A stretch of 64,000 nucleotides of DNA from Eledone cirrhosa (Eukaryota): NCBI GenBank assembly GCA_964016885.1, contig OZ024745.1, positions 49,290,001 to 49,354,000 of the forward strand, in the 5' to 3' direction. Below are positions 3,001 to 56,517 of the stretch, in pieces (the first letter of the stretch is position 1; the number at the start of each line of letters is the position of its first letter). A program made the position numbers and the translations under genes. A model generated the notes under the pieces. That model made no database searches. It saw only the letters and a list, made by a program, of their open reading frames with translations, and was not told where the DNA came from.

Positions 3001-6000
3001 AGCGAGTGAGTGAGTGAGTGAGTGAGTGAGTGAGTTAGTGAGGGAGTGAGTGAGTGAGTGAGTGAATGAGGGAGTGTGTAAATGAGTTAGTGAGTGAGTG
3101 AGTGAGTGAGTTAGCGAGTGAGTGAGCGAGTGAGTGAGTTAGTGAGGGAGTGAGTTAGTGAGTGAGTGAATGAGGGAGTGAGTAAATGAGTTAGTGAGTG
3201 AGTGAGTGAGGGAGTGAGTGAGTGAGTGGGTGAATGAGAGAGTGAGTAAATGAGTTACTTAGTGAGTGAGTGAGTGAGTTAGTGAATGAGGGAGTGAGTA
3301 AATGAGTTAGTGAGTGAGTGAGTGAGTGAGTGAGTTAGTGAGGGAGTGAGTGAGTGAGTGGGTGAATGAGGGAGTGAGTAAATGAGGTAGTGAGTGAATG
3401 AGGGAGTGAGTAAATGAGTTAGTGAGTTAGTGTGTGAGTGACTTCGTGAGGGAGTGAGTGAGTGAGTGAGTGTGTGAATGAGGGAGTGAGTAAACGAGTT
3501 AGTGAGTAAGTGAGTGAGTGAGCGAGTGAGTGAGTTAGTGTGGGAGTGAGTTAGTGAGTGAGTGAGTAAATGAGTTAGTGAGTGAGTGAGTGACTGAGTG
3601 AGTGAGTTAGTGAGGGAGTGAGTGAGTCAGTGGGTGAGTGGGTGAATGAGGGAGTGAGTAAATGAGTTAGTGAGTGAGTGAGTGAGTGAGTTAGTGAGGG
3701 AGTGAGTGAGTGAGTGGGTGAATGAGGGAGTGAGTAAACGAGTTAGTGAGTGAGTGATTGAGTGGGTGAATGAGGGAGTGACTAAATGAGTTAGTTAGTG
3801 AGTGAGTGAGTGAGTTAGTGAATGAGGGAGTGAGTGGGTGAGTGAGTGAGTGCCTGACTGAGTGATGTGGGTGAATGAGGGAGTGAGTAAATGAGTTAGT
3901 GATTGAGTGAGTGCGTGAGCGAGTGAGTGAGTTAGTGAGTGAGTGAGTGGGTGAGTGGGTCAATGAGGGAGTGAGTAAATGAGTTAGTGAGTGAGTTAGT
4001 GAGTGAGTGAGTTAGTGAGGGAGTGAATTAGTGAGTGAGTGAATGAGGGAGTGAGTAAATGAGTTAGTGAGTGAATTAGTTAGTGAGGGAGTGAGGGAGT
4101 GAGTGAGTGAGTGGGTGAATGAGGGAGTGAGTAAACGAGTTAGTGAGTGAGTGAGTGAGTGGGTGAATGAGGGACTGAGTAAATGAGTTAGTTAGTGAGT
4201 TAGTGAATGAGGGAGTGAGTAAATGAGTTAGTGAGTGAGTGAATGAGTGGGTGAATGAGGGAGTGAGTAAATGAGTGAGTGAGTGAGTGAGTGAGTGAAT
4301 GAGGGAGTGAGTAAATGAGTTAGTGAGTGAGTGAGCGAGTTAGTTAGTGAGGGAGTGAGTGAGTGAGTGGGTGAATGATGGAGTGAGTAAATGAGTGAGT
4401 GAGTGAGTGAGTGAGTGAATGAGGGAGTGAGTAAATGAGTTAGTGAGTGAGCGAGTGAGTGAGTAAGTGAGTGAATGAGGGAGTGAGTAAACAAGTTAGT
4501 GAGTGAGTGAGTGAGTGAGCGTGTGAGTGAGTGGGTGAGTGAGTGAGTGGGTGTGTGAGTGAGTGAGTGAGTGGGTGAATGAGGGAGTGAGTAAATGAGT
4601 TAGTGAGTGAATGAGTGAGTGAGTGAGTGAGTTAGTGAGGGTGTGAGTGGGTGAATGAGGGAGTGAGTGAGTGAGTGGGTGAATGAGGGAGTGAGTGGGT
4701 GAATGAGGGAGTGAGTAAACGAGTTAGTGAGTGAGTGAGTGAGCGATTGAGTGAGTGGGTGGGTGAGTGAGTGAGTGGGTGAGTGAGTGGGTGAATGAGG
4801 GAGTGAGTGGGTAAACGAGTTAGTGAGTAAGTGAGTGAGTGAGCGAGTAAGTGGGTGAGTGAGTGAGTGAGTGGGTGAATGAGGGATTGAGTAAATGAGT
4901 TAGTGAGTAAGTGAGTGAGCGAGTGAGTGAGTGGGTGAGTGAGTGAGTGGGTGAATGAGGGAGTGAGTAAATGAGTTAGTGAGTGAGTTATTGAGTGAGT
5001 GAGCGAGTGAGTGAGCTAGTGAGGGAGTGAGTGAGTGAGTGAATGAGTGAGTGAGTAAATGAGTTAGTGAGTGAGTGAGTGAGTGAGGGAGTGAGTGAGT
5101 GAGTTAGTGGGTGAATGAGGGAGTGCGTAAACGAGTTAGTGAGTGAGTGAGTGAGTGAGTGGGTGAATGAGGGAGTGAGTGAGTGAGTGAGTGAATGAGG
5201 GAGTGTGTAAATGAGTTAGTGAGTGAGTTAGCGAGTGAGTGAGCGAGTGAGTGAGTTAGTGAGGGAGTGAGTTAGTGAGTGAGTGAATGAGGGAGTGAGT
5301 AAATGAGTTAGTGAGTGAGTGGGTGAGTGAGTGAGTGAGTGAGGGAGTGAGTGAGTGAGTGAGTGGGTGAATGAGGGAGTGAGTAAACGAGTTAGTTAGT
5401 GAGTGAGTGAGTGAGTTAGTGAATGAGGGAGTGAGTAAATGAGTTAGTGAGTGAGTGAGTGAGTTAGTGAGGGAGTGAGTGAGTGAGTGGGTGAATGAGG
5501 GAGTGAGTAAATGAGTTAGTTAGTGAGTGAGTGAGTGAGTTAGTGAATGAAGGAGTGAGTAAATGAGTTAGTGAGTGAGTGAGTGAGTGAGTGAGTTAGT
5601 GAGGGAGTGAGTGAGTGAGTGGGTGAATGAGGGAGTGAGTAAATGAGGTAGTGAGTGAGTGAGTGACTGGGTGAATGAGGGAGTGAGTAAATGAGTTAGT
5701 TAGTGAGTGAGTGAGTGAGTGAGTAAATGAGTTAGTGAGTGAGTGAGTGAGTGAGTGAGTTAGTGAGGGAGTGAGGGAGTGAGTGAGTGAGTGGGTGAAT
5801 GAGGGAGTGAGTAAACGAGTGAGTGAGTAAGTGAGTGAGTGAGTGAGTGAGTGAGTGAGTGAGTGAGTGAGTGAGTGAGTGAGTGAGTGAGTGAGTGAGT
5901 GAGTGGGTGAATGAGGGAGTGAGTAAATGAGTTAGTGTGTGAGTTAGTGAGTTAGTGAGGGAGTGAGTTAGTGAGTGAGTGAATGAGGGAGTGAGTAAAT

Positions 6001-9000
6001 GAGTTAGTGAGTGAGTTAGTGAGTAAGCGAGTTAGTGAGTGAATGAGTGAGTGAGTTAGTGAGGGAGTGAGTGAGTGAGTGAGTGGGTGAATGAGGGAGT
6101 GAGTAAATGAGTTAGTGAGTGAGTGAGCGAGTGAGTGAGTGAGTGGGTGAGTGATGAGTGGCTGAATGAGGGAGTGAGTCAATGAGTTAGTGAGTGAGCG
6201 AGTGAGTGAGTGAGTTAGTGAGGGAGTGAGTGGGTGAATGAGGGAGTGAGTGAGTGAGTGGGTGAATGAGGAAGTGAGTAAATGAGTTAGTGAGTGAATG
6301 AGTGAGTGAGTGAGTGAGTTAGTGAGGGAGTGAGTGGGTGAATGAGGGAGTGAGTGAGTGAGTGGGTGAATGAGGGAGTGAGTGGGTGAATGAGGGAGTG
6401 AGTAAATGAGTTATTAAGTGAGCGAGTGAGTAAGTGAGTGAGTGAGTGGGTGAATGAGGGAGTGAGTAAACGAGTTAGTGAGTGAGTGAGTGAGCGATTG
6501 AGTGAGTGGGTGAGTGAGTGAGTGAGTGGTTGAGTGAGTGGGTGAATGAGGGAGTGAGTAACCGAGTTAGTGAGTAAGTGAGTGAGTGAGCGAGTGAGTG
6601 GGTGAGTGAGTGAGTGAGTTATTGAGTGAGTGAGCGAGTGAGTGAGTTAGTAAATGAGTGAGTGAGTGAGTGAATGAGTGAGTGAGTAAATGAGTTAGTG
6701 AGTGAGTGAGTGAGGGAGTGAGTGAGTGAGTTAGTGGGTGAATGAGGGAGTGAGTAAACGAGTTAGTGAGTGAGTGAGTGAGTGAGTGAGTGAGTGAGTG
6801 GGTGAATGAGGGACTGAGTGAGTTAGTGAGGGAGTGAGTGAGTGAGTGAGTGAATGAGGGAGTGTGTAAATGAGTTAGTGAGTGAGTGAGTGAGTGAGTG
6901 AGTGAGCGAGTGAGTGAGTGAGTGGGTGAGTGAGTGAGTGAGTGGGTGAGTGAGCGAGTGAGTGAGTTAGCGAGTGAGTGAGCGAGTGAGTGAGATAGTG
7001 AGGGAGTGAGTTAGTGAGTGTGTGAGTTAGTGAGGGAGTGAGTTAGTGAGTGAGTGAGTGAGTAAATGAGTTAGTGAGTGAATGAGTGAGTGAGTGAGTG
7101 AGTGAGTGAGTGAGTGAGTGAATGAGGGAGTGAGTAAACGAGTTAGTTAGTGTGTGAGTGAGTGAGTGAGTGAGTTAGTGAGGGAGTGAGTGAGTGAGTG
7201 GGTGAATGAGGGAGTGAGTAAATGAGTTAGTTAGTTAGTGAGTGAGTGAGTTAGTGAATGAGGGAGTGAGTAAATGAGTTAGTGAGTGAGTGAGTGAGTG
7301 AGTGAGTTAGTGAAGGAGTGAGTGAGTGAGTGGGTGAATGAGGGAGTGAGTAAATGAGGTACTGAGTGAGTGAGTGAGTGGGTGAATGAGGGAGTGAGTA
7401 AATGAGTGAGTTAGTGAGTGAGTGAGTGAGTTAGTGAATGAGGGAGTGAGTAAATGAGTTAGTGAGTGAGTGAGTGAGTGAGTTAGTGAGGGAGTGAGTG
7501 AGTGAGTGGGTGAATGAGGGAGTGAGTAAACGAGTGAGTGAGTGAGTGAGTGAGTGAGTGAGTGAGTGAGTGAGTGAGTGAGTGAGTGAGTGAGTGAGTG
7601 GGTGAGTGGGTGAATGAGGGAGTGAGTAAATGAGTTAGTGAGTGAGTTAGTGAGTGAGTGAGTTAGTGAGGGAGTGAGTTAGTGAGTGAGTGAATGAGGG
7701 AATGAGTAAATGAGTTAGTGAGTGAGTTAGTGAGTAAGCGAGTTAGTGAGTGAGTGAGTGAGTGAGTTAGTGAGGGAGTGAGTGAGTGAGTGAGTGGGTG
7801 AATGAGGGAGTGAGTAAATGAGTTAGTGAGTAAGCGAGTGAGTGAGTAAGTGAGTGAGTGAGTGAATGAGGGAGTGAGTAAACAAGTTAGTGAGTGAGTG
7901 AGTGAGTGAGCGTGTGAGTGAGTGAGTGAGTGAGTGAATGAGGGAGTGAGTAAATGAGTTAGTTAGTGAGTGAGTGAGTGAGTTAGTGAATGAGGGAGTG
8001 AGTAAATGAGTTAGTGAGTGAGTGAGTGAGTGAGTGAGTGAGTGAGTTAGTGAGGGAGTGAGTGAGTGAGTGGGTGAATGAAGGAGTGAGTAAATGAGGT
8101 AGTGAGTGAGTGAGTGAGTGAGTGAGTGAATGAGGGAGTGAGTAAATGAGTTAGTGAATGAGGGAGTGAGTAAATGAGTTAGTGAATGAGGGAGTGAGTA
8201 AGTGAGTGAGTGAGTGAGTGAGTGAGTGAGTGGGTGAATGAGGGAGTGAGTAAATGAGTTAGTGAGTGAGTTAGTGAGTGAGTGAGTTAGTGAGGGAGTG
8301 AGTTAGTGAGTGAGTGAATGAGGGAGTGAGTAAACGAGTTAGTGAGTGTGTGTGTGAGTGAGTGAGTGAGTGAGTGAGTGAGTGAGTGAGTGAGTGAGTG
8401 AGTGAGTGAGTGAGTGAGTGAGTGAGTGAGTGAGTGAGTGAGTGAGTGAGTGAGTGAGTGAGTGAGTGAGTGGGTGAATGAGGGAGTGAGTAAATGAGTT
8501 AGTGAGTGAGTTAGTGAGTGAGTGAGTTAGTGAGGGAGTGAGTTAGTGAGTGAGTGAATGAGGGAGTGAGTAAATGAGTTAGTGAGTGAGTTAGTGAGTA
8601 AGCGAGTTAGTGAGTGAGTGAGTGAGTTAGTGAGGGAGTGAGTGAGTGAGTGAGTGGGTGAATGAGGGATTGAGTAAATGAATTACTGAGTAAGCGAGTG
8701 AGTGAGTAAGTGAGTGAGTGAGTGAATGAGGGAGTGAGTAACCAAGTTAGTGAGTGAGTGAGTGAGTGAGCGTGTGAGTGAGTGGGTGAGTGAGTGAGTG
8801 GGTGAGTGAGTGAGTGAATGAGTGGGTGAATGAGGGAGTGAATAAATGAGTTAGTGAGGGAGTGAGTGAGTGAGTGAGTGAGTGGGTGAATGATGGAGTG
8901 AGTAAATGAGTGAGTGAGTGAGTTAGTGAGGGAGTGAGTGAGTGACTGAGTGGGTAAATGAGGGAGTGAGTAAACGAGTTAGTGAGTGAGTGAGTGAGTG

Positions 9001-12000
9001 AGTGAGCGAGTGAGTGAGTGAGTGGGTGGGTGAGTGAGTGAGTGAGTGGGTGAATGAGGGAGTGAGTGAGTGAGCGAGTGAGAGAATTATTGAGTGAGTG
9101 AGCGAGTTAGTGAGTTAGTGAGGGATTGAGTGAGTGAATGAGGGAGTGAGTAAATGAGTTAGTGAGTGAGTGAGTGAGTGAGTGAGTTGGTGAATGAGGG
9201 AGTGAGTAAATGAGTTAGTGAGTGAGTGAGTTGGTGAATGAGGGAGTGAGTAAATGAGTTAGTGAGTACGTGAGCGAGTGAGTGAGTGAGTGAGTGAGTG
9301 AGTGAGTGAGTGAGTGAGTGAATGAGGGAGTGTGTAAATGAGTTAGTGAGTGAGCGAGTGAGTGCGTTAGTGAGTGAGTGAGCGAGTGAGTGAGTTAGTG
9401 AGGGAGTGAGTTAGTGAGTGAGTGAATGAGTGAGCGTGTGAGTGAGTGGGTGAGTGAGTGAGTGGGTGAGTGAGTGAATGAGGGAGTGAGTAAATGAGTT
9501 AGGGAGTGAGTGAGTGAATTAGTTAGTGAGGGAGTGAGGGAGTGAGTGAGTGAGTGGGTGAATGAGGGAGTGAGTGAGTGAGTGGGTGAATGAGGGAGTG
9601 AGTAAACGAGTTAGTTAGTGAGTGAGTGAATGAGTTAGTGAATGAGGGAGTGAGTAAATGAGTTAGTGAGTGAGTGAGTGAGTGAGTTAGTGAGGGAGTG
9701 AGTGAGTGAGAGGGTGAATGATGGAGTGAGTAAATGAGTGAGTGAGTGAATGAGGGAGTGAGTAAATGAGTTAGTGAGTGAGTGAGTGAATTAGTTAGTG
9801 AGGGAGTGAGTGAGTGAGTGAGTGAGTGAGTGGGTGAATGAGGAAGTGAGTAAATGAGTTAGTTAGTGAGTGAGTGAGTGAGTTAGTGAATGAGGGAGTG
9901 AGTAAATGAGTTAGTGAGTGAGTGAGTGAGTGAGTTAGTGAGGGAGTGAGTGAGTGAGAGGGTGAATGAGGGAGTGAGTAAATGAGTGAGTGAGTGAATG
10001 AGGGAGTGAGTAAATGAGTTAGTGAGTGAGTGAGCGAGTTAGTTAGTGAGCGAGTGAGTGAGTGAGTGAGTGAGTGGGTGAATGAGGGAGTGAGTAAATG
10101 AGTTAGTGAGTGAGCGAATGAGTGAGTGAGTGAGTGAGTGAGTGAGTGAGTGAGTGAGTGAGTGAGTGAGTGAGTGAGTGAATGAGGGAGTGATTAAACA
10201 AGTTAGTGAGTGAGTGAGTGAGTGAGTGAATGAGGGAGTGAGTAAACAAGTTAGTGAGTGAGTGAGTGAGCGTGTGAGTGAGTGGGTGAGTGAGTTAGTG
10301 GGTGAGTGAGTGAGTGGGTGAGTGGGTGAATCAGGGAGTGAGTAAACGAGTTAGTGAGTGAGTGAGTGAGTGAGCGAGTGAGTGAGTGAGTGGGTGAGTG
10401 AGTGAATGAGGGAGTGAGTAAATGAGTTAGTGAGTGAGTGAGCGAGTGAGTGAGTTAGTGAGTTAGTGAGGGAGTGAGTAAATGAGTTAGAGAGTGAATG
10501 AGCGAGTGAGTGAGTTAGTGAGTGAGGGAGTTAGTTAGTGGGTGAGTGAGTGAGTGAGTCGGTGAACGAGGAAGTGAGTAAATGAGTGAGTGAGTTAGTT
10601 AGTGAGTGAGTGAGCGAGTGAGTGAGTAAGTGAGTGAGTGAGTGCTTGAATGAGGGAGTGAGTAAACGAGTGAGTGAGTGAGTGGGTGAGTGGGTGAATG
10701 AGGGAGTGAGTAAATGAGTTAGTGAGTGAATGAGTGAGTGAGTGAGTGAGTTAGTGAGGGAGTGAGTGGGTGAATGAGGGAGTGAGTGAGTGAGTGGGTG
10801 AATGAGGGAGTGAGTGGGTGAATGAGGGAGTGAGTAAATGAGTTATTAAGTGAGCGAGTGAGTGAGTAAGTGAGTGAGTGAGTGGGTGAATGAGGGAGTA
10901 GAGTAAACGAGTTAGTGAGTGAGTGAGCGATTGAGTGCGTGGGTGAGTGAGTGAGTGAGTGAGTGAGTGGGTGAGTAAGTGGGTGAATGAGGGAGTGAGT
11001 AAACGAGTTAGTGAGTAAGTGAGTGAGTGAGCGAGTGAGTGGGTGAGTGAGTGAATGAGGGAGTGAGTAAATGAGTTAGTGAGTGAGTGAGTGAGCGAGT
11101 GAGTGAGTGAGTGGGTGAGTGAGTGAGTGAGTGGGTGAATGAGGGAGTGAGTAAATGAGTTAGTGAGTGAGTGAGCGAGTGAGTGAGTTATTGAGTGAGT
11201 TATTGAGTGAGTGAGTTAGTGAGGGAGTGAGTGAGTGAGTGAGTGAATGAGTGAGTGAGTAAATGAGTTAGTGAGTGAGTGAGTGAGTGAGGGAGTGAGT
11301 GAGTGAGTTAGTGGGTGAATGAGGGAGTGAGTAAACGAGTTAGTGAGTGAGTGAGTGAGTGAGCGAGCGAGCGAGCGAACGAGCGAGTGTGTGAGTGAGT
11401 GAGTGAGTGAGTTAGTGAGGGAGTGAGGGAGTGAGTGAGTGAGTGAGTGAATGAGGGAGTGTGTAAATGAGTTAGTGAGTGAGTGAGCGAGTGAGTGAGT
11501 TAGCGAGTGAGTGAGCGAGTGAGTGAGTTAGTGAGGGAGTGAGTTAGTGAGTGAGTGAATGAGGGAGTGAGTAAATGAGTTAGTGAGTGAATGAGGGAGT
11601 GAGTAAATGAGTTAGTGAGTTAGTGTGTGAGTGAGTTAGTGAGGGAGTGAGTGAGTGTGTGAATGAGGAAGTGAGTAAACGAGTTAGTGAGTTAGTGTGG
11701 GAGTGAGTTAGTGAGTGAGTGAGTAAATGAGTTAGTGAGTGAGTGAGTGACTGAGTGAGTGAGTTAGTGAGGGAGTGAGTGAGTCAGTGGGTGAGTGGGT
11801 GAATGAGGGAGTGAGTAAATGAGTTAGTGAGTGAGTGAGTGAGTGAGTTAGTGAGGGAGTGAGTGAGTGAGTGGGTGAATGAGGGAGTGAGTAAACGAGT
11901 TAGTGAGTGAGTGATTGAGTGGGTGAATGAGGGAGTGAGTAAATGAGTTAGTTAGTGAGTGAGTGAGTGAGTTAGTGAGTGAGTGAGTGAGTTAGTGAAT

Positions 12001-25129: not shown

Positions 25130-26254
25130 ATAGAATAGAAAGAACTAAGAACAAGGCCAATAGAATAAACTCATGGTATGATAGCAATAAATACCAGAGT
25201 GTAATGTTCATCAATACAACCCCTAGAGGCGAACTAGCCTACAAATTTAGAAGGGCCCTAAAGAAACATAATCTCAATATTAAGATAGTAGAAAGACCTG
25301 GTACCTCCGTAAAAACACTTATTAGCAAGACATACCCGTTCCAAAGACCCTCATGTATAGATAAGAAATGTATAACCTGTAAAATAAGCCCCCATATTAA
25401 CTGTAAAACTAGAAATGTAGTATATAGCATAAGATGTACTGAAGGACAATGTAGAAACAAAAATATAGTGTACATAGGTGAGACAGCTCGTAGTATAGGG
25501 GAACGAATAAATGAACACTGGCGAGACCTCCAAGATAATAAAGAATCATCTGTGCTCTACCAACATGCTAAGATAGAACACAGGGGTAAATTAGAGAGCA
25601 TAGAAATAAAAATAGAATCCACACACAAGAAAGACGCAATGTTTAGGCAAATTACAGAGGCAGTAAGCATAAAAGAATTAAAACCAAAATTAAATAGAAA
25701 ATATGAGTGGAACAGCAACATCACAACTTACAATTAAGGACAAAATGAAAACACACACACACATAGAACAAACAACTTACAATTGAAAACACACACAAAA
25801 TGAAAACACACACAAGACAAAATGAAAACACACACACACATAGAACAAACAACCAATAGAACAAACAACCAACCAATAATAAATAAATAAATAAACAAAC
25901 AAATAGAAAAATATAAATAGAAAAATAGAAAAATGAACACAAACACACACAGACACCCGGATGTGGCGCATGCACAAACTGAGCACGCAACCCACACACA
26001 AACAAAATGGCGTAGGATAGAAGAAAAGAAAGGCACAGAAACGAAGAAAGAAATCCCCAGTCACTGAAGAGGTCACAGAGTGTGTGACGAAAGAACTATG
26101 ACTATATATATATAAACAACTATCTGGTTGTGGAACCAACCAACCAACCAGAAATTTATAAATTTGTAAATTTATAAATATATAATAAATTAAATTGAAG
26201 TGAAAGCAACTGGTGCGTGTGTTTCTTATTGGCAACATGACCCTCCCAAAGTAT

Positions 26255-26257
<3 letters not shown>
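25130..26257 (+). mobile_element. 5'-truncated Penelope-like element (Naiad-like): GIY-YIG domain and 3' pLTR with HHR
   Basis: SWYDSNKYQSVMFINTTPRGELA...CIDKKCITC...CKTRNVVYSIRC...YIGETARSIGERINEH...RQITEAVSIKELKPKLNRKYEW (stop 25737). 3' end runs into (TA)n. Clade call is by motif recall only. Confidence 0.88.
26059..26103 (+). ncRNA. type I hammerhead ribozyme in PLE 3' pLTR
   Basis: AGTCA-CTGAAGA(26064)-G-GTCACA-GAGTG-TGTGAC-GAAA-GAAC-TA|TGACT; stem I is AGTCA/TGACT. Confidence 0.8.
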
Positions 26258-27287
<1,030 letters not shown>

Positions 27288-35218: not shown

Positions 35219-36385
35219 AATTCTCATCATCTCCAGCTCTAGCTTTACGAGCAGATATGGTATAATAACAATGCAGTGACATTAGTCGACATTATAAATG
35301 CCCCCCAACATTTTTACCATTTCTTTGAAAACAACAACAACAACAACACCAGTTGCTGTCATTTGAAAACCTTGACAACGATGAGTCATATTTCTACTGT
35401 CAGGCAGTTTTTATTTGCCTAAACTGCTTATTATAAACATAACCAACTTTTCCCAATTTACTGTGGTGTACGACAATGTTGTATTAATATTAGTAAAATA
35501 TTGCATTTAATATTACTAATGCTAAAAAGCAGCACATCACCAGAATCACAAGAGTAATTCGAGCAAAATACCATTGTGGTATTTAGTTATGTCCCTTTTC
35601 GTATTGAATTCAAATAACGTTGATGTATTCTATGTCTTTCACCCATCTTATGCCAATCAAATCTTAACTATAATAAAGGAAGGTCTGCGGAATTGCGTCC
35701 AGAATATAATTTTTTACCCCGTTTCTAAAATAACTTGGATTACTTTGAATAAATAATGAATGAATATTACATAATTTATGTGATAAATTTCGTAGCTGTT
35801 GATTAAATATATTTTATAGCTTATAAAGATCTTTAAAATTCAATTCTTTAAAATTATCAAATGTCAACACTTCCGGTTAGCGGCCGTTATATAACTTATA
35901 ATCGCATATATTTCCGTCGCTAATTTTCTCCTAAAATTTTCTCCTAATGCAGTTTATATATAATGTCGTCTTTTTTTAAATATATCATGGATTACTGATT
36001 ACAGAAGACAGTGTAACATAGGCTTTGTTCAATTTCTGTATATATTGTCAATTACGATTTTATTTGATGCATCATATCTGCATACATCTATATTTGTGTA
36101 TAATATACACACTACACTTGCTAGCAGAAAACCACCCGTAGGGTGGTTTTCTGCTAGTAAACACTAATGGAGAGAGATTTAAATCAGGCCTTATTCCATA
36201 TCTCTCCTCCATATCATGCTAATGATATTATTTCATTCATGCTCATAAACCTGGGCAAGATGGTTGCTGACCTTTTTCTTCTGTTGAAGATGTTGCTTTA
36301 GTGTTACTATCCGGATCTCGTATGGTGTTAATATGAATTTTAGACCCCGGCCACCTTCCTTGCATGAGAAATATAGCCTATCCAC

Positions 36386-36387
<2 letters not shown>

Positions 36388-36416
<29 letters not shown>

Positions 36417-36482
36417 TGTATGTATGTATGTATGTATGTATGTATGTATGTATGTATGTATGTATGTATGTATGTATGTATG
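36388..36482. repeat. (ATGT)n microsatellite
   Basis: Abuts the 5' truncation of the RTE. Confidence 0.95.
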
Positions 36483-39400
36483 TTTATGGACCGTCTTCTT
36501 CTCTGGTGACACCGCTTCGCAGCAAGGATGGCAAAGAACTTCTTCGTGACTCACAAGGAATTCTACGATGGTGGCGAGAGCACTTTCATGAGCTTTTGAA
36601 TCAGCCGTCTGTCGTCAATGAAAATTTCCTCAATCTCATTCCAGAAAGTACTGTGAAAGTAGCTCTCGCAGAACCTCCGACGCTTGTGGAGGTTGCAGTG
36701 GCTATCTTGAAGCTCAACAGTGGAAGGTCTCCAGGTATGGATGGCATACATGCAGAGCTCCTACAATATGGTGTTGAGAGACTCCTACAATATCTTCACT
36801 TTTTGTTTGGCAGGATATGGGCTAATGAATCCGTACCTGAGGACTGGAGAGATGCAGTAATGGTGGTCATGTACAAGGGAAAAGGTAACAGGAATGATTG
36901 CGGGAACTACAGAGGTATATCATTGCTTTCTGTCGTAGGGAAAGTTTTATGTAGGGTGCTTCTGGACCGTCTGCTGACACACATTGCATATTGTGTTCTT
37001 CCTGAAAGTCAATCTGGTTTTCGTGCTGGACGCGGCACTACTGATATGATCTTCTCAGCTAGACAGCTCCAGGAGAAGTGCATGGAACAAGGCTTGGATC
37101 TGTATCAGGTTTTTGTCTATCTGACAAAAGCCTTCGATACTGCTAACAGAAATGCATTATGGAAGGTTATCCAGAAACTTGGTTGCCTTGATAAGTTCCT
37201 TGCTTTAGTTAGGTCTTTCTATGACGACATGAAGGCTTGGGTTAATGTCGGGGGTAACATGTCGGAGCCTATCTCAGTAAAAATGGACCCTATTTGCCAT
37301 ATACTTTGCAGTGGTTTTCTATATTGCATTCAGGAATTGCGAGCATGGTGTTTACATCCGATATCGAACCTCAGGCAGCATATTTAACATCAGGCGCTTT
37401 GCTGCAAAAACAAAAGTATTTACATCAATCATAAGAGACCTCTTGTATGCAGATGATTGCGATCTTGTAGCGCACACAGAGAATGATATGCAGCACATTT
37501 TGAATGCATTTTCTGATGCTTGCACTGCCCTAGGATTGTCTGTCAGTGTCATGAAAACCGTCGTCATGTACCAACCTGCCCCTGGTAAGCAGTACAGTGA
37601 ACCAAATATCTATGTGTAAGGTAAACGACTTGGAGTGGTTGATCAGTTTGTCTACCTGGGAAGCACTGTCAATCGATACGGCAACCTTGATAATGAAATC
37701 CCACTCAGGATTAGGAAAGCAAGTGATGCTTTCGGAAAGCTAGAAAGGCGACTCTGGGGTCGGCGAGACATGTGCAAGAAGACAAAGGTAAAGGTGTACA
37801 AGGAATGTGTGCTCTCTTCTCTTCTTTATGCCTGCGAGACCTGGGTCACGTATCGACACCACCTTAAGCAATTGGAGCGTTTCCCTCAGATGTGTCTCAG
37901 ACGGATCCATGGCATTCACTGGAGGGACCACATCAGTGATGTCGAGATTTTGGAAAGCTCTGTGTGACAGTATAGAAGCTCTTGTGCTTAAGCAACGACT
38001 CCGTTGGAGTGGTCACCTTGCCAGGATGAAGGATTCTAGAATACCAAAACAACTCTTTTATGGAGAGTTAGTTAAAGGAAAACGACCGCCACATATACCA
38101 AAAAAGAGGTATAAGGATTCCTTGAAAGCCTCTCTGAAAGACGCTAACATCTCTGTTGATACATGGGAAAGTGTTGCTGCTGATCGTAATAAATGGAGAA
38201 AGATTGTATATGGTTGAAATCCTTCATTCCCAGCCGAAAAGAGGTAGTCACGATTCTAGGACAGCATTCTTCACCATATGAGATGTCATCTGGTGTACCA
38301 CAGGGATCTGTTCTTGGTCCCCTTTTGTTTGTGGCATATATTAATGACATAGATGGCAACTTAAAGAATGCCACAGTACTGAAATATGCAGATGACATCA
38401 AGCTGTACCTTGAAATCAAAAGGACTGATCTTGAAATCTACAACTCTTTCCTACAATCAAACCTGGACACAATGCAGCAATGGATCACAGACTGGCAACT
38501 GAAGCTGGCTGTGGACAAGTGTACCACCATGCATTTTGGGAGGAAAAATCCAGCATCCACATACTCCCTCCACAACACTGATATCAAGAAGTCCTCTTGT
38601 GAACGTGACCTGGGCATTACTGTCAGCAACGATTTGCGTTGGACAAAGCATGTCTCTAAGATTGTCAAGAAGGCCGAGGGTGTCTTGGCATCACCCAGCA
38701 AGACCTTTGTTAGCCGCTCTCCAGCCATCTATTTAAAACTGTATACAGCTATGGTACGACCACATTTGGAATTCGCATCATCAGTCTGGAACCCCTATCT
38801 TGCTCAGAACATTGATCTCCTGGAAACTGTTCAGAGACGTGCAACCAAGCGCATACCCTCCATCAGACACCTACCATACTCTGAACGCCTTTTTTCCCTG
38901 GGCATGGATTCATTGAAGCTCCGACGTCTGGCAATGGACTTGGTAAACACCCACAAAGTTATTAACCATCTCGCCAACAACAACCCTGAGCACCTTTTTG
39001 ATCTCCATGTGTCTAACACAGGTGGATATGCCTACAAAATCAGACAACAGCACAGCTCCCATGACTTTCGGAAACATATTTTCACGCTCAGAGTTGCTGA
39101 AGCATGGAACAAACTGCCTGCGTCAGTTGTTAGTTGCCGAGACACTGCATCCTTTAAAACCCTCATGCTTCCCGAAATTCGCCAAAACTACACCTGATGT
39201 ACCCCTTCCATACACATGCACACATGTGTATATCATGACTCATGCACTGTTCATTTTCCTGACGTTTGTACATTACCCTATGTACTATACATACACTTTT
39301 TGATGAGTTGTAGTGCACCTGAGCACTGTACACAATATTTCATTATTATGAGAGAAAAGTTGCCTTTGAGGCATCTCGAATCGCATACGAGAAAGTAAAG

Positions 39401-42390: not shown

Positions 42391-42703
42391 ATATATATAT
42401 ATATTTATATATATATCAAAAGTATGTCCATAGAATCATATGATAAAATATATACACCATTTCCTCTCCCAATTAGCATAATTAACGACATAAAAAATCA
42501 ATTAGACCAGGCTATAAGAATAAAGGCTCCTATGAAGAAATATTTGATAAATAAACGACACCAGCCTCTTCGCGACCGACCGCAATAGAATATTTACCCA
42601 ACATTTCAACAGCATGTAGAAATCGACTAAATATATCGTCAACCATACACAATTAGGTATAAATTTAAAGTTAGAAGAAATGTGTACACTCTTACCATGA
42701 TAT

Positions 42704-43326
<623 letters not shown>

Positions 43327-43329
43327 ACG

Positions 43330-43546
43330 TAGGTCCCGGGTTGAGTCGGGGATAACCACAGTAGGTAAGGTACTCAATACATGGCAGAGTAAAATTTTTT
43401 TATTTTATAGAAGGAGCTTCTACAGGACTAGTACTGTTTCATTCAGATGAAATCTTCAGGAATGAAACAGTAATCTGGAATGAAACAGAAAATCTGAATG
43501 AAACAGTACTAGTCCTGTAGAAGCTCCTTCTATAAAATAAAAAAAA
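43330..43546 (-). mobile_element. fold-back mini-element family C, second copy, with minus-strand HHR (~43416-43462)
   Basis: Minus strand TTC-CTGAAGA-TTTCATCTGAAT-GAAA-CAG-TACTAGTC-CTGTA|GAAG; tail homologous to 27613-27690. Confidence 0.8.
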
Positions 43547-45228
<1,682 letters not shown>

Positions 45229-48200
45229 TGAATATAGACATAGAATATTCGAAAATATTCTGTATGTTTATAATAAACATTTTGAAGACCTAATCGCTAT
45301 AGAATAGAATACGTCACGTATTACAATTAGATTCTCGATAAAAGCAAGGGAAGTAAATCTACGCGTTTCATTCTTATTAGAAATCGTCAGGACTACATAT
45401 CCAGTGCTTCTATCGAGAATGACACAGCTAGAGACTTATAGAATACTTAGCTGTGTACAGGAACTGGTTTGAAAGAGCGGTTGCCGGTCCGGCAGAAATT
45501 AGAAATTGGAATAAATGCTCTGAAATAGCGATATATATGTGAATATAGACATAGAATATTCGAAAATATTCTGTATGTTTATAATAAACATTTTGAAGAC
45601 CTAATCGCTATAGAATAGAATACGTCACGTATTACAATTAGATTCTCGATAAAAGCAAGGGAAGTAAATCTACGCGTTTCATTCTTATTAGAAATCGTCA
45701 GGACTACATATCCAGTGCTTCTATCGAGAATGACACAGCTAGAGACTTATAGAATACTTAGCTGTGTACAGGAACTGGTTTGAAAGAGCGGTTGCCGGTC
45801 CGGCAGAAATTAGAAATTGGAATAAATGCTCTGAAATAGCGATATATATGTGAATATAGACATAGAATATTCGAAAATATTCTGTATGTTTATAATAAAC
45901 ATTTTGAAGACCTAATCGCTATAGAATAGAATACGTCACGTATTACAATTAGATTCTCGATAAAAGCAAGGGAAGTAAATCTACGCGTTTCATTCTTATT
46001 AGAAATCGTCAGGACTACATATCCAGTGCTTCTATCGAGAATGACACAGCTAGAGACTTATAGAATACTTAGCTGTGTACGTATTCTATTCTATAGCGAT
46101 TAGGTCTTCAAAATGTTTATTATAAACATACAGAATATTTTCGAATATTCTATGTCTATATTCACATATATATCGCTATTTCAGAGCATTTATTCCAATT
46201 TCTAATTTCTGCCGGACCGGCAACCGCTCTTTCAAACCAGTTCCTGTACACAGCTAAGTATTCTATAAGTCTCTAGCTGTGTCATTCTCGATAGAAGCAC
46301 TGGATATGTAGTCCTGACGATTTCTAATAAGAATGAAACGCGTAGATTTACTTCCCTTGCTTTTATCGAGAATCTAATTGTAATACGTGACGTATTCTAT
46401 TCTATAGCGATTAGGTCTTCAAAATGTTTATTATAAACATACAGAATATTTTCGAATATTCTATGTCTATATTCACATATATATCGCTATTTCAGAGCAT
46501 TTATTCCAATTTCTAATTTCTGCCGGACCGGCAACCGCTCTTTCAAACCAGTTCCTGTACACAGCTAAGTATTCTATAAGTCTCTAGCTGTGTCATTCTC
46601 GATAGAAGCACTGGATATGTAGTCCTGACGATTTCTAATAAGAATGAAACGCGTAGATTTACTTCCCTTGCTTTTATCGAGAATCTAATTGTAATACGTG
46701 ACGTATTCTATTCTATAGCGATTAGGTCTTCAAAATGTTTATTATAAACATACAGAATATTTTCGAATATTCTATGTCTATATTCACATATATATCGCTA
46801 TTTCAGAGCATTTATTCCAATTTCTAATTTCTGCCGGACCGGCAACCGCTCTTTCAAACCAGTTCCTGTACACAGCTAAGTATTCTATAAGTCTCTAGCT
46901 GTGTCATTCTCGATAGAAGCACTGGATATGTAGTCCTGACGATTTCTAATAAGAATGAAACGCGTAGATTTACTTCCCTTGCTTTTATCGAGAATCTAAT
47001 TGTAATACGTGACGTATTCTATTCTATAGCGATTAGGTCTTCAAAATGTTTATTATAAACATACAGAATATTTTCGAATATTCTATGTCTATATTCACAT
47101 ATATATCGCTATTTCAGAGCATTTATTCCAATTTCTAATTTCTGCCGGACCGGCAACCGCTCTTTCAAACCAGTTCCTGTACACAGCTAAGTATTCTATA
47201 AGTCTCTAGCTGTGTCATTCTCGATAGAAGCACTGGATATGTAGTCCTGACGATTTCTAATAAGAATGAAACGCGTAGATTTACTTCCCTTGCTTTTATC
47301 GAGAATCTAATTGTAATACGTGACGTATTCTATCTATAGCGATTAGGTCTTCAAAATGTTTATTATAAACATACAGAATATTTTCGAATATTCTATGTCT
47401 ATATTCACATATATATCGCTATTTCAGAGCATTTATTCCAATTTCTAATTTCTGCCGGACCGGCAACCGCTCTTTCAAACCAGTTCCTGTACACAGCTAA
47501 GTATTCTATAAGTCTCTAGCTGTGTCATTCTCGATAGAAGCACTGGATATGTAGTCCTGACGATTTCTAATAAGAATGAAACGCGTAGATTTACTTCCCT
47601 TGCTTTTATCGAGAATCTAATTGTAATACGTGACGTATTCTATTCTATAGCGATTAGGTCTTCAAAATGTTTATTATAAACATACAGAATATTTTCGAAT
47701 ATTCTATGTCTATATTCACATATATATCGCTATTTCAGAGCATTTATTCCAATTTCTAATTTCTGCCGGACCGGCAACCGCTCTTTCAAACCAGTTCCTG
47801 TACACAGCTAAGTATTCTATAAGTCTCTAGCTGTGTCATTCTCGATAGAAGCACTGGATATGTAGTCCTGACGATTTCTAATAAGAATGAAACGCGTAGA
47901 TTTACTTCCCTTGCTTTATCGAGAATCTAATTGTAATACGTGACGTATTCTATTCTATAGCGATTAGGTCTTCAAAATGTTTATTATAAACATACAGAAT
48001 ATTTTCGAATATTCTATGTCTATATTCACATATATATCGCTATTTCAGAGCATTTATTCCAATTCTAATTTCTGCCGGACCGGCAACCGCTCTTTCAAAC
48101 CAGTTCCTGTACACAGCTAAGTATTCTATAAGTCTCTAGCTGTGTCATTCTCGATAGAAGCACTGGATATGTAGTCCTGACGATTTCTAATAAGAATGAA

Positions 48201-48371
48201 ACGCGTAGATTTACTTCCCTTGCTTTTATCGAGAATCTAATTGTAATACGTGACGTATTCTATTCTATAGCGATTAGGTCTTCAAAATGTTTATTATAAA
48301 CATACAGAATATTTCGAATATTCTATGTCTATATTCACATATATATCGCTATTTCAGAGCATTTATTCCAA
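45229..48371. mobile_element. 311-bp tandem array (~10 units), one hammerhead per unit, with internal inversion (retrozyme / PLE pLTR array)
   Basis: Period 311 (45230, 45541, 45852). ~2.7 units on minus (45229-46080) and ~7.4 on plus (46081-48371). HHR reads GTAGTC-CTGACGA-TTTCT-AATA-AGAAT-GAAA-CGCG-TA|GATTTAC. Plus cores at 46314, 46625, 46936, 47247, 47557, 47868, 48177; minus cores at 45384, 45695, 46006. Confidence 0.9.
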
Positions 48372-48515
48372 TATATATATTTATTTATATATATTTATTT
48401 ATATATATATATATATTTATTTATATATATATATATTTATTTATATATATATATATATATTTATTTATATATATATATATTTATTTATATATATTTATTT
48501 ATATATATATATATA

Positions 48516-48582
<67 letters not shown>

Positions 48583-48737
48583 TTATTTATATATATATAT
48601 TTATATATATATATATATATATATTTATTTATTTATTTATATATATATATATTTATCTATCTATATATATATATATATATATTTATTTATATATATATAT
48701 ATTTATCTATATATATATATATATATATATATTTATT

Positions 48738-48768
<31 letters not shown>

Positions 48769-48785
48769 ATATATATTTATTTATT

Positions 48786-48816
<31 letters not shown>

Positions 48817-48852
48817 ATATATATTTATTTATTATATATATATATATTTATC

Positions 48853-49077
<225 letters not shown>

Positions 49078-49100
49078 TTATATATATATATATATTTATT

Positions 49101-49173
<73 letters not shown>

Positions 49174-49210
49174 TTATATATTTATATATATATATATTTA
49201 TATATATATT

Positions 49211-49244
<34 letters not shown>

Positions 49245-49252
49245 ATATAATT

Positions 49253-49285
<33 letters not shown>

Positions 49286-49311
49286 ATATATACTTTATAT
49301 ATATATATATT

Positions 49312-49342
<31 letters not shown>

Positions 49343-49389
49343 TTATATATATATTTATATATATTTATATATATATTTATATATATATT

Positions 49390-49420
<31 letters not shown>

Positions 49421-49423
49421 ATT

Positions 49424-49460
<37 letters not shown>

Positions 49461-49528
49461 ATTTATATATATATATATATATTATATTTATATATATATA
49501 TATATTTATATATATTATATATATATAT

Positions 49529-49623
<95 letters not shown>

Positions 49624-49652
49624 ATATATATATTTATATGTATATATATATT

Positions 49653-49741
<89 letters not shown>

Positions 49742-49868
49742 TTATTTTTATATATATATATATATATATATTTATTTTTATATATATATATATATATATA
49801 TTTATTTTTATATATATATATATATATATTTATTTATATATATATATATTTATTTATATATATATATA

Positions 49869-49907
<39 letters not shown>

Positions 49908-49942
49908 TTATATATATATATATTTATTTATATATATATATA

Positions 49943-49975
<33 letters not shown>

Positions 49976-50091
49976 TTATTTATATATATATATATTTATT
50001 TATATATATATATATATTTATTTATTTATATATATATATATATTTATTTATATATATATATATATAATATATATTTATTTATATATATATA

Positions 50092-50158
<67 letters not shown>

Positions 50159-50189
50159 TTATATATATAAATTTAATATATATATATCT

Positions 50190-50221
<32 letters not shown>

Positions 50222-50332
50222 ATATATTTATTTATATATATATATATTTATCTATATATATATATTTATTTATATATATATATATTTATTTACATATATA
50301 TATATTTATTTGTATATATATATATATTTATT

Positions 50333-50392
<60 letters not shown>

Positions 50393-50422
50393 TTATATAT
50401 ATATTTATTTATTTATATATAT

Positions 50423-50627
50423 ATGATAGCTAACAAGCTTGAAACTAGTACATCGTTCCTGTGTCAGTGTTGAACAAAAAGGTGACGTGGTTGCCTTAAC
50501 ACCGTATGGCATAAATTCAGGCTGTTCGATTTGTTGACAAACAAACGAACAAAGCAGGCGTTATAATAAACGTCGGCTAAACTGATGCGTGCATATATGT
50601 ATGTGTACCTGTATGCATATGTGTATA

Positions 50628-50669
<42 letters not shown>

Positions 50670-51116
50670 TGCTACTGTACGTCTGTATACATATATGTAT
50701 GTACGTATACATACATACTTACATTTAAGTAAGTGCCATAATAAGAGTGAGAAATGAAATTTCGTTTTCATTTTTTCAACTTATCGTTTTCGGTATGCCT
50801 GACCGATTTAACTCACTCAATATGCAAACTAGGCTGCTCAGCCGTTAATTTTCATAAGGAAAGTATATACTTTCGAACGTTCAACTATCTGGCAGATGGG
50901 TAAACGGTGCTGATGATAGCTAACAAGCTTGAAACTAGTACATCGTTCCTGTGTCAGTGTTGAACAAAAAGGTGACGTGGTTGCCTTAACACCGTATGGC
51001 ATAAATGCAGGCTGTTCGATTTGTTGACAACAAACGAACAAAGCAGGCGTTATAATAAACGTCGGCTAAACTGATGCGTGCATATATGTATGTGTACCTG
51101 TATGCATATGTGTATA

Positions 51117-51163
<47 letters not shown>

Positions 51164-51274
51164 GCTACTGTACGTCTGTATACATATATGTATGTACGTA
51201 TACATACATACTTACATTTAAGTAAGTGCCATACTAAGAGTGAGAAATGAAATTTCGTTTTCATTTTATTCAAC

Positions 51275-51278
<4 letters not shown>
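50423..51278 (+). mobile_element. 490-bp HHR repeat family, 1.7 tandem units
   Basis: Unit repeats at 50425 and 50915; complete HHR at 50903-50947. Confidence 0.85.
50903..50947 (+). ncRNA. type I minimal hammerhead ribozyme
   Basis: AACGGTG-CTGATGA-T-AGCT-AACA-AGCT-T-GAAA-CTAG-TA|CATCGTT; 7-bp stem I and palindromic stem III ACTAGT. Confidence 0.88.
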
Positions 51279-51316
<38 letters not shown>

Positions 51317-53338: not shown

Positions 53339-53543
53339 ATGATAGCTAACAAGCTTGAAACTAGTACATCGTTCCTGTGTCAGTGTTGAACAAAAAGGTG
53401 ACGTGGTTGCCTTAACACCGTATGGCATAAATTCAGGCTGTTCGATTTGTTGACAAACAAACGAACAAAGCAGGCGTTATAATAAACGTCGGCTAAACTG
53501 ATGCGTGCATATATGTATGTGTACCTGTATGCATATGTGTATA

Positions 53544-53589
<46 letters not shown>

Positions 53590-54182
53590 TGCTACTGTAC
53601 GTCTGTATACATATATGTATGTACGTATACATACATACTTACATTTAAGTAAGTGCCATACTAAGAGTGAGAAATGAAATTTCGTTTTCATTTTTTTCAA
53701 CTTATCGTTTTCGGTATGCCTGACCGATTTAACTCACTCAATATGCAAATTAGGCTGCTCAGCCGTTAATTTTCATAAGGAAAGTATATACTTTCGAACG
53801 TTCAACTATCTGGCAGATGGGTAAACGGTGCTGATGATAGCTAACAAGCTTGAAACTAGTACATCGTTCCTGTGTCAGTGTTGAACAAAAAGGTGACGTG
53901 GTTGCCTTAACACCGTATGGCATAAATGCAGGCTGTTCGATTTGTTGACAAACAAACGAACAAAGCAGGCGTTATAATAAACGTCGGCTAAACTGATGCG
54001 TGCATATATGTATGTGTACCTGTATGCATATGTGTATATATATGTATATTATATATATATATATACATGCTACTGTACGTCTGTATACATATATGTATGT
54101 ACGTATACATACATACTTACATTTAAGTAAGTGCCATACTAAGAGTGAGAATGAAATTTCGTTTTCATTTTATTCAACTTAT
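53339..54182 (+). mobile_element. 490-bp HHR repeat family, second block (HHR at 53824-53868)
   Basis: Near-identical to 50423-51278. Confidence 0.85.
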
Positions 54183-56209: not shown

Positions 56210-56317
56210 TATTTATATTATATATTTATTTATTTATATATATATGATAGCTAACAAGCTTGAAACTAGTACATCGTTCCTGTGTCAGTGTTGAACAAAA
56301 AGGTGACGTGTTGCCTT

Positions 56318-56517
56318 NNNNNNNNNNNNNNNNNNNNNNNNNNNNNNNNNNNNNNNNNNNNNNNNNNNNNNNNNNNNNNNNNNNNNNNNNNNNNNNNNNN
56401 NNNNNNNNNNNNNNNNNNNNNNNNNNNNNNNNNNNNNNNNNNNNNNNNNNNNNNNNNNNNNNNNNNNNNNNNNNNNNNNNNNNNNNNNNNNNNNNNNNNN
56501 NNNNNNNNNNNNNNNNN
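56318..56517. other. assembly gap (200 N)
   Basis: Run of N. Confidence 1.

Follow-up and report, generated by a model that had tools for sequence, protein, structure and literature searches.

The 311-bp repeat locus at positions 45229-48372 of the window, i.e. the 64,000-nt stretch of DNA analysed here (C5:49,290,001-49,354,000 of the 3.0-Gb Eledone cirrhosa assembly), is by every feature testable in sequence a non-LTR retrozyme that was inserted with hallmarks of Penelope-like elements (PLEs). We estimate a probability of approximately 0.65 that its two arms were copied from target-strand primers on one circular 311-nt RNA by a PLE-type enzyme. The first-pass annotation had identified the locus as a retrozyme, which the present data support, while overlooking an inversion within it. 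This inversion is the key to the mechanism: the locus consists of two arms, probably primed independently, with ends at a fixed offset in a (TA)n target, which is a PLE hallmark.

Organization of the locus and its hammerheads

The units follow a 311-bp period, are nearly identical, and contain ten hammerhead cores in total (CTGACGA...GAAACGCGTA, one per unit), arranged in two divergent arms. The short-end arm (45229-46080) lies on the minus strand and comprises 2.74 units with three hammerhead cores (45360-45390, 45671-45701, and 45982-46012); its RNA-sense 3' end and inner end are at unit positions 131 (window 45229) and 213, respectively, when positions are numbered from window 46345, the first base past the predicted cut. 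The long-end, tail-bearing arm (46079-48372) lies on the plus strand and comprises 7.38 units with seven hammerheads, the first core being at 46314-46344 and the others at 46625, 46936, 47247, 47557, 47868, and 48177; its inner end is at position 46 and its RNA-sense 3' end at position 166 (window 48372). The arms meet at an inversion junction (46079-46080), where a 2-nt microhomology (AC) is common to both. The single head-to-tail array of ten units that had been annotated here is ruled out by these opposite-strand arms, which overlap by 2 nt. Because of their opposite orientation, ten monomers cannot be released from one read-through transcript. Only eight cut-to-cut monomers (2 + 6) are present at the locus. 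The monomer used as the reference extends from predicted cut to predicted cut (46345-46655, plus strand, 311 nt).

Differences between units are limited to four single-T deletions in T runs, all located in the plus arm (unit lengths of 311, 311, 311, 310, 311, and 309), with no substitutions; these deletions may be T-run sequencing errors rather than biology. The earlier description of near-identical, non-coding units that differ only by rare 1-bp deletions and carry one hammerhead each was thus accurate, with 10 of 10 cores intact and a longest stop-free frame of 59 codons in the 311-nt unit, which is devoid of an ORF. The GC content is 0.34 across window 46001-48000, i.e. below 50%, and no LTR layout is present. 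Absence of an ORF for RT plus GIY-YIG from the unit separates it from autonomous PLEs, and the array shows the features of the non-LTR retrozyme class (two or more consecutive tandem units of ~170-400 nt, every one of them containing a type I hammerhead).

One (TA)n-type microsatellite encloses the locus on either flank (42700-45228 on the left; 48373-50400 on the right, from where it runs on to 56245, interrupted by other inserts). An assembly or chimeric-read artefact may be suspected wherever low-complexity DNA contains inverted repeats, and a gap (56319-56517) with a repeated block alongside, as well as the resemblance of the four deletions to T-run errors, point in that direction. Each locus of the family, however, has its own junction and haplotype and yet uses the same two end zones, and contigs from a public run, which may be derived from the assembly's own sample, have loose ends in TA tract at unit positions 140 and 171. 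We therefore attach almost no weight to an artefact.

Several other elements were identified in the window. A second hammerhead family with a period of ~490 nt occupies 50426-51280, 53341-54180, and 56246-56318 within the TA tract of the retrozyme locus, its cores being at 50910 and 53831; its block repeats every ~2.9 kb up to the N gap, which may reflect duplication or misassembly, and related motifs also occur in several other loci. A small back-to-back fragment in the left TA tract (43330-43550), with a hammerhead-like motif on the minus strand (43432-43459), may represent a third family that is organized in the same way. The 3' fragment of a distant, second PLE family with GIY-YIG lies in a TA/TATG tract at 21074-21754. 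The remaining repeats include a degenerate (GTGA)n array of 15 kb (1-15095) and putative broken LINE-type RT fragments (36377-39197).

The first hammerhead of the plus arm (46314-46344) consists of CUGACGA, a stem II with U.U at its base, GAAA, and, at the place of stem III, the palindromic sequence ACGCGU, with a predicted cut after GUA; its stem I is formed by 46308-46313 with 46345-46351 (six pairs and a bulge). The unit gave no Rfam hammerhead match at the gathering score or at E<=10. Despite this silence, the motif is, on the basis of its core motif, stems, and natural variation pattern, a type I hammerhead. Folding yielded a z-score of -3.64 for the reference-monomer frame moved by 1 nt; closure of stem III in the monomer costs energy, and the ACGCGU self-duplex of two copies has a calculated value of -9.5 kcal/mol. 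Across arrays, only N7 varies array-wide in the core (C, U, or A), and variants in stem I retain pairing. Substitutions that break a pair or the core account for 3 of 25 array-wide changes (two of these three are an alignment effect of one compensated change) versus 28 of 71 within-array changes (p 0.013; four noisy arrays left out), a contrast that suggests selection on the RNA fold.

Array ends, joints, and the autonomous PLE

The presence of other genomic copies, which the first-pass annotation had proposed to count, was confirmed: a 25-nt unit motif has 16,541 exact matches in the genome (reversed control, 0), dispersed over multiple loci. A pattern consisting of the long end plus TA has 772 forward-strand matches, reverse matches being counted several times, and was present in 11 of 18 clusters in the first 36 Mb of C1, from which we estimate a family size of ~1,500-2,500 insertions. 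In total, 121 arrays were examined: 60 long-end-selected arrays (the first 60 sites from C1, of 63 distinct sites listed) and 61 end-unselected arrays, comprising the window array, the best unit-search matches, and arrays chosen by variant or position. An older sister family (L080, L155, and L156-L185) is ~75% identical over the start-site region and has a ~319-nt period and 2,782 motif matches; its copies frequently form divergent pairs whose ends fall in the same two zones as those of the 311-bp family, and the hammerhead core was not noticed in two copies inspected.

Two arms were found in 58 of the 60 long-end-selected arrays (the others being one single-armed array and one adjoining a gap) and in 47 of the 61 end-unselected arrays; the remaining 14 of the latter, approximately a fifth to a quarter, show a single arm, the inner end being out of view in one case. 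All 43 end-unselected two-arm arrays with both ends visible possess one short and one long end, and two ends alike were found in none (entries L092 and L099 are scored as short plus long). Short ends lie at 112-145, mostly at 131 or 140 in the AUAUAUAU tract, and long ends at 150-175, mostly at 166-173. The two outer ends are thus offset by ~35 nt, corresponding to a 30-40-nt tail at one end only. On the basis of this end census, reverse transcription would start at 131-140 and at 166-173, the two zones and the intervening ~35-nt tail corresponding to 46475-46517 (plus strand) within one unit of the window locus. The flank was TA-rich at 91% of left and 96% of right ends (69 arrays), and target-site duplications are not callable within such microsatellites.

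Inner ends show a different behaviour from these fixed outer ends. Their phases are uniform round the unit, and only 2 of 130 lie within ~6 nt of the ribozyme cut (5.9 expected), i.e. there is no run-off. Among the 65 of 69 simple arrays usable for joint statistics, six joints are same-phase, or palindromic (4.4 expected), and 17 contain an insert, which is often templated; of 48 flush joints, 28 have microhomology of at least 2 nt, compared with an expected 18%. In array L058, 272 bp of unrelated sequence separates the two arms.

An autonomous PLE of the same genome served as the comparison element. Its 3' fragment in the window (25123-26262, plus strand), unlinked to the retrozyme locus, contains a GIY-YIG domain, a hammerhead-like motif (26064-26098), and a short end. 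This young element has full copies elsewhere (e.g. L190 and L186), with a period of 4,278 nt and open frames of up to ~1,300 aa, and its 150 scored matches are 99-100% identical in protein. Pfam was silent on the whole ORF, while pieces of it gave GIY-YIG and RVT_1 (E 7.8e-5, below the cut-off). Its insertions are back to back, and the combination of one short and one long end was observed in 17 of 17 two-ended insertions, with a tail of 55-60 nt. In L186, both tandem full-length units share seven variants absent from the other copies examined, which hints at a circular template for the autonomous element too.

These data bear on the possibility that the first cDNA folded back and primed its own copying into the second arm, or that the second arm was made from an antisense template. 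Such origins have been proposed for PLE palindromes (PMC3846280) and would explain the agreement between arms; moreover, four joints of the autonomous PLE (L147, L152, L195, and L196) are near-palindromic and fit fold-back, or run-off from one broken RNA, in a subset of insertions. In the retrozyme, however, same-phase joints are not in excess of the expectation given above, and the short-end arm is the longer arm in 25 of 51 arrays. Five insertions of the autonomous PLE have two arms that are each shorter than one unit. In these, the tail is confined to one arm, and the tail-less arm extends further in the 5' direction; since each arm has sequence that the other lacks, copying of one from the other at the DNA level is precluded. 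The substitution bias described below is also sense-strand A>G, not T>C, and rolling would still be required for the first arm. We consider this explanation very unlikely.

The search for a partner element returned no PLE terminal repeat similar to the unit among the loci examined by blastn, no linked ORF or matching terminal repeat at 30 loci of the ~75% identical sister family, no unit-like terminal repeat among the best 150 of 39,596 and 68,830 candidates scored for two PLE protein queries, and no terminal repeat matching the unit in the 3' regions of 12 PLE fragments. The autonomous PLE at 25123-26262, the tail of which is longer than that of the retrozyme, is a comparison element and only a candidate partner.

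Sequence variation and the template of the arrays

The majority state is equal in both arms of 69 of 70 two-arm arrays, while random pairs of arrays share a haplotype in ~10% of cases. Genome-wide counts were run for five variants. Two are confined, as fixed states, to single arrays: 106T>C is present in 13 of 13 units of one array, in both arms, with six isolated matches elsewhere in the genome, and 233T>C in 8 of 8 units of another, with two isolated matches elsewhere. All eight isolated matches sit in arrays of other backgrounds and were rejected as parent units. The other three variants represent lineages (of two, nine, and many arrays) rather than private changes: 120T>G is present throughout two arrays plus one other match, a 3-nt deletion throughout nine arrays, and 211C>A in a larger lineage plus one mosaic 46-unit array. 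The latter array was rejected as the 211C>A parent, its 211A units all having 15G>A, which is lacking in other arrays. The arrays with the 3-nt deletion were listed in full, and among them three further changes (158T>C, 102A>G, and 249T>C) each occupy every unit of one array.

Such homogeneity could also be expected of an ordinary minisatellite, in which a short insertion was amplified and homogenized locally by unequal exchange and conversion. A model of this kind is discussed in 10.64898/2026.07.22.740005, and arrays of 27-46 units are indeed mosaic, with block duplications and variants at intermediate frequency, indicating that DNA-level turnover does act. These later expansions are, however, restricted to one arm. 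In arrays of at least 6 units, non-lineage variants comprise 55 single, 10 minor, and 5 fixed changes, with none between 50% and 100%, and local amplification offers no route to a strand-specific A>G bias or to fixed offset ends. The minisatellite reading is highly improbable and, for typical arrays, already largely refuted.

The counts of substitution origins depend on a minimum spanning tree (95 arrays; 39 haplotypes) with the most frequent haplotype as its root. In the RNA sense, A>G accounts for 16 of 42 array-wide substitution origins compared with 4 of 100 changes confined to one unit (p 6e-7; the latter count excludes five noisy arrays), and the A>G:T>C ratios are 16:5 and 4:20, respectively. 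At paired positions, 14 origins were counted for A>G and none for C>T, although each yields G.U; selection for G.U alone is therefore insufficient, since C>T should be favoured too. No such bias was found in the autonomous PLE (2 of 23 shared changes). The window locus itself has G at one recurrent A>G site, unit position 261 (46605, plus strand), in 10 of 10 units and both arms, whereas only A is present in 91 of 95 arrays.

ADAR enzymes perform A-to-I editing and prefer adenosines with a 5' U or A, not G. The 5' neighbour of the eight A>G sites is G in none and U in four, compared with a unit-wide 16 of 91 adenosines with a 5' G; these sites are too few for a firm comparison. A strand-specific, stem-located, recurrent A>G change that precedes amplification is the trace that A-to-I editing on a single template would be expected to leave. 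G21 arose on five backgrounds in the 95-array set and has 825 genome matches; position 21 is all-or-none in these arrays (five all, none in part), as is position 260, and partial cases are limited to two at position 277 and one at position 261. In ten further G21 loci, all units have G in eight, 1 of 4 units in one, and 2 of 10 units in one. The partial A>G arrays are L066 (12 of 13 units), L095 (8 of 12), L256 (2 of 10), and L249 (1 of 4). An all-or-none G points to a single edited template, since a multimer would be edited unit by unit.

This pattern is relevant to two further alternatives. In the first, PLE two-strand priming would occur on a long, uncut read-through RNA of the parent array, the clonal appearance resulting from homogeneous parents. 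It would account equally for the missing run-off at the cut site, and a PLE works without cleavage in vitro (PMC11167929). In addition, variants specific to certain units recur in both arms of L071 and L105, equally far from the outer ends, and such variants are shared in alternation by the arms of L240; together with L087 and L099, these arrays have non-fixed variants common to both arms, which necessitates a multimeric template or arm-to-arm conversion there. We accept that in a few arrays some templates may have been multimeric, or that the arms may convert each other. As a general explanation, however, the uncut multimer is unlikely: G would be scattered over single units of an edited multimer, yet arrays are all-or-none at positions 21 and 260, the assembly contains no multi-unit parent for either 106T>C or 233T>C, and three changes are each fixed throughout one member of the nine-array deletion lineage.

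In the second alternative, which we regard as quite unlikely, the arms or successive units would be derived from different RNAs, either two circles or cut monomers between which the enzyme jumps, all originating at a single dominant source locus in the cell concerned. Dimerization has been predicted for a PLE protein (PMC11167929), and the state changes part-way in L095 and L256, where inner units have G and outer units A; this switch could mean that editing took place while synthesis was under way, that the enzyme changed templates, or that conversion spanned the centre of the palindrome. Against different RNAs, a putatively edited site with G in ~5% of units (825/16,541) is fixed across both arms in the great majority of carrier arrays; moreover, inner ends should cluster at the cut if the enzyme jumped at monomer ends, and no such clustering was observed. 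The clonal arrays, the A>G signature, and the lack of run-off at the cut thus lend support to the youth of the array and to its origin by reiterative reverse transcription of a circular RNA, as the first-pass annotation had proposed. Among sequencing runs containing the unit, no RNA run was listed. A 340-nt looped unit contig in three runs of unknown kind was not used as an indication of a circle, as the same contig would be obtained from tandem DNA.

Proposed mechanism and known systems

For the preferred reading, in which both arms derive from one circular RNA, we propose the following sequence of events. A source array would be transcribed, its hammerheads would cut in pairs, and the monomer would be ligated into a circle, which would stay intact because the monomer ribozyme is predicted to be unable to form stem III. 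A host deaminase (ADAR) may at times edit a stem adenosine of the circle. A Penelope-type enzyme, itself putative, would then cut both target strands, with synthesis beginning in the two zones at ~131-140 and ~166-173 evident from the end pattern. Each cDNA would roll a few turns round the circle and halt at a random phase, and the inner ends are joined through microhomology of 1-6 nt or by way of a small templated patch, as the joints display. Unequal exchange subsequently lengthens one arm of a few arrays. In its strongest form, the proposal is that each insertion is the fossil of one circle, with a PLE dimer cutting both strands of the (TA)n tract, its two RTs occupying the two start sites of that circle and rolling in opposite genomic directions, and an inosine being copied into every unit of both arms; we consider the odds of this form to be evenly balanced. 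If true, the arrays would provide direct genomic evidence of rolling-circle retrotransposition in retrozymes, one rule would explain both the inverted repeat and the one-sided tail of PLEs, and RNA editing would rank among the main sources of heritable change for a retroelement family. A young family with fixed starts, clonal arms, and an editing record sharpens tests of the circle and PLE-mobilization hypotheses, and the intact young PLE in the same genome is an enzyme to try.

The anatomy invites comparison with L1 twin priming, in which both target strands prime, a 5' inversion is generated with microhomology at the joint, and the first arm, copied from a single linear RNA, halts where the second primer annealed. 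Unlike in twin priming, the inner ends here are not enriched near the second site (15 of 69 at positions 120-175, vs 12.4 expected), and the arms repeatedly cover the same sequence.

Plant LTR retrozymes are similar in that a hammerhead-made circular RNA is mobilized in trans (PMC7229834; 10.64898/2026.07.22.740005), but their described layout, with type III hammerheads in LTRs, PBS/PPT, a 4-bp TSD, and a Gypsy partner, is not apparent here. The metazoan non-LTR retrozymes of coral, mussel, and axolotl are much closer, being dispersed, high-copy tandem arrays of ~300-nt, non-coding, low-GC units with a type I hammerhead each (PMC7229834; 10.64898/2026.07.22.740005). The axolotl HHR_Amex1 has a palindromic, weak stem III and HHR_Amex2 a U.U at the base of stem II, as in the present unit (PMC7229834; 10.64898/2026.07.22.740005), and axolotl ribozymes with the palindromic stem III layout cut as dimers (PMC7229834). 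Of nine Xenopus retrozyme dimers, 8 failed to cleave (10.64898/2026.07.22.740005), and a PLE can do without ribozyme cleavage in vitro (PMC11167929). For metazoan retrozymes, tandem cDNA templated by a circle and mobilization by PLEs have both been proposed, and RNA editing has been mentioned as a possible source of circle heterogeneity (PMC7229834; 10.64898/2026.07.22.740005). In Xenopus, a PLE terminal repeat was matched in 24 of 57 retrozyme families (10.64898/2026.07.22.740005), whereas none was found here among the loci examined. The metazoan elements are described as head-to-tail repeats, and the words 'inverted' and 'orientation' do not occur in the relevant sense in the main text of either paper (PMC7229834; 10.64898/2026.07.22.740005); the arrays described here, in contrast, mostly consist of two divergent clonal arms with fixed offset ends and an A>G record.

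EN+ PLEs share the inverted 5'-truncated copy, the one-sided 30-40-nt tail, and the (TA)n target (PMC8557442, PMC3846280), and for an EN+ PLE two internal RT starts bound the tail and both target strands are cut and extended in vitro (PMC11167929). The tandem/inverted structure and the tail of PLEs have been called unexplained (PMC8557442). In contrast to EN+ PLEs, the retrozyme has no ORF, the arms of its clonal arrays reach ~19 units, and short and long ends are strictly distributed one per arm. The short start zone of the retrozyme can pair with the TA target, whereas an Anolis PLE starts without homology (PMC8557442, PMC3846280, PMC11167929). Among the papers listed in a literature search that did not extend to subscription work on PLE structure, none describes retrozyme arrays placed back to back, a strict pairing of short with long ends, or a record of editing; the supplementary model figure of PMC7229834 may bear on novelty. 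The retrozyme class is therefore known and, as far as searched, what is new is the two-arm rule together with genomic evidence for one, sometimes edited, monomer circle as the template of all units.
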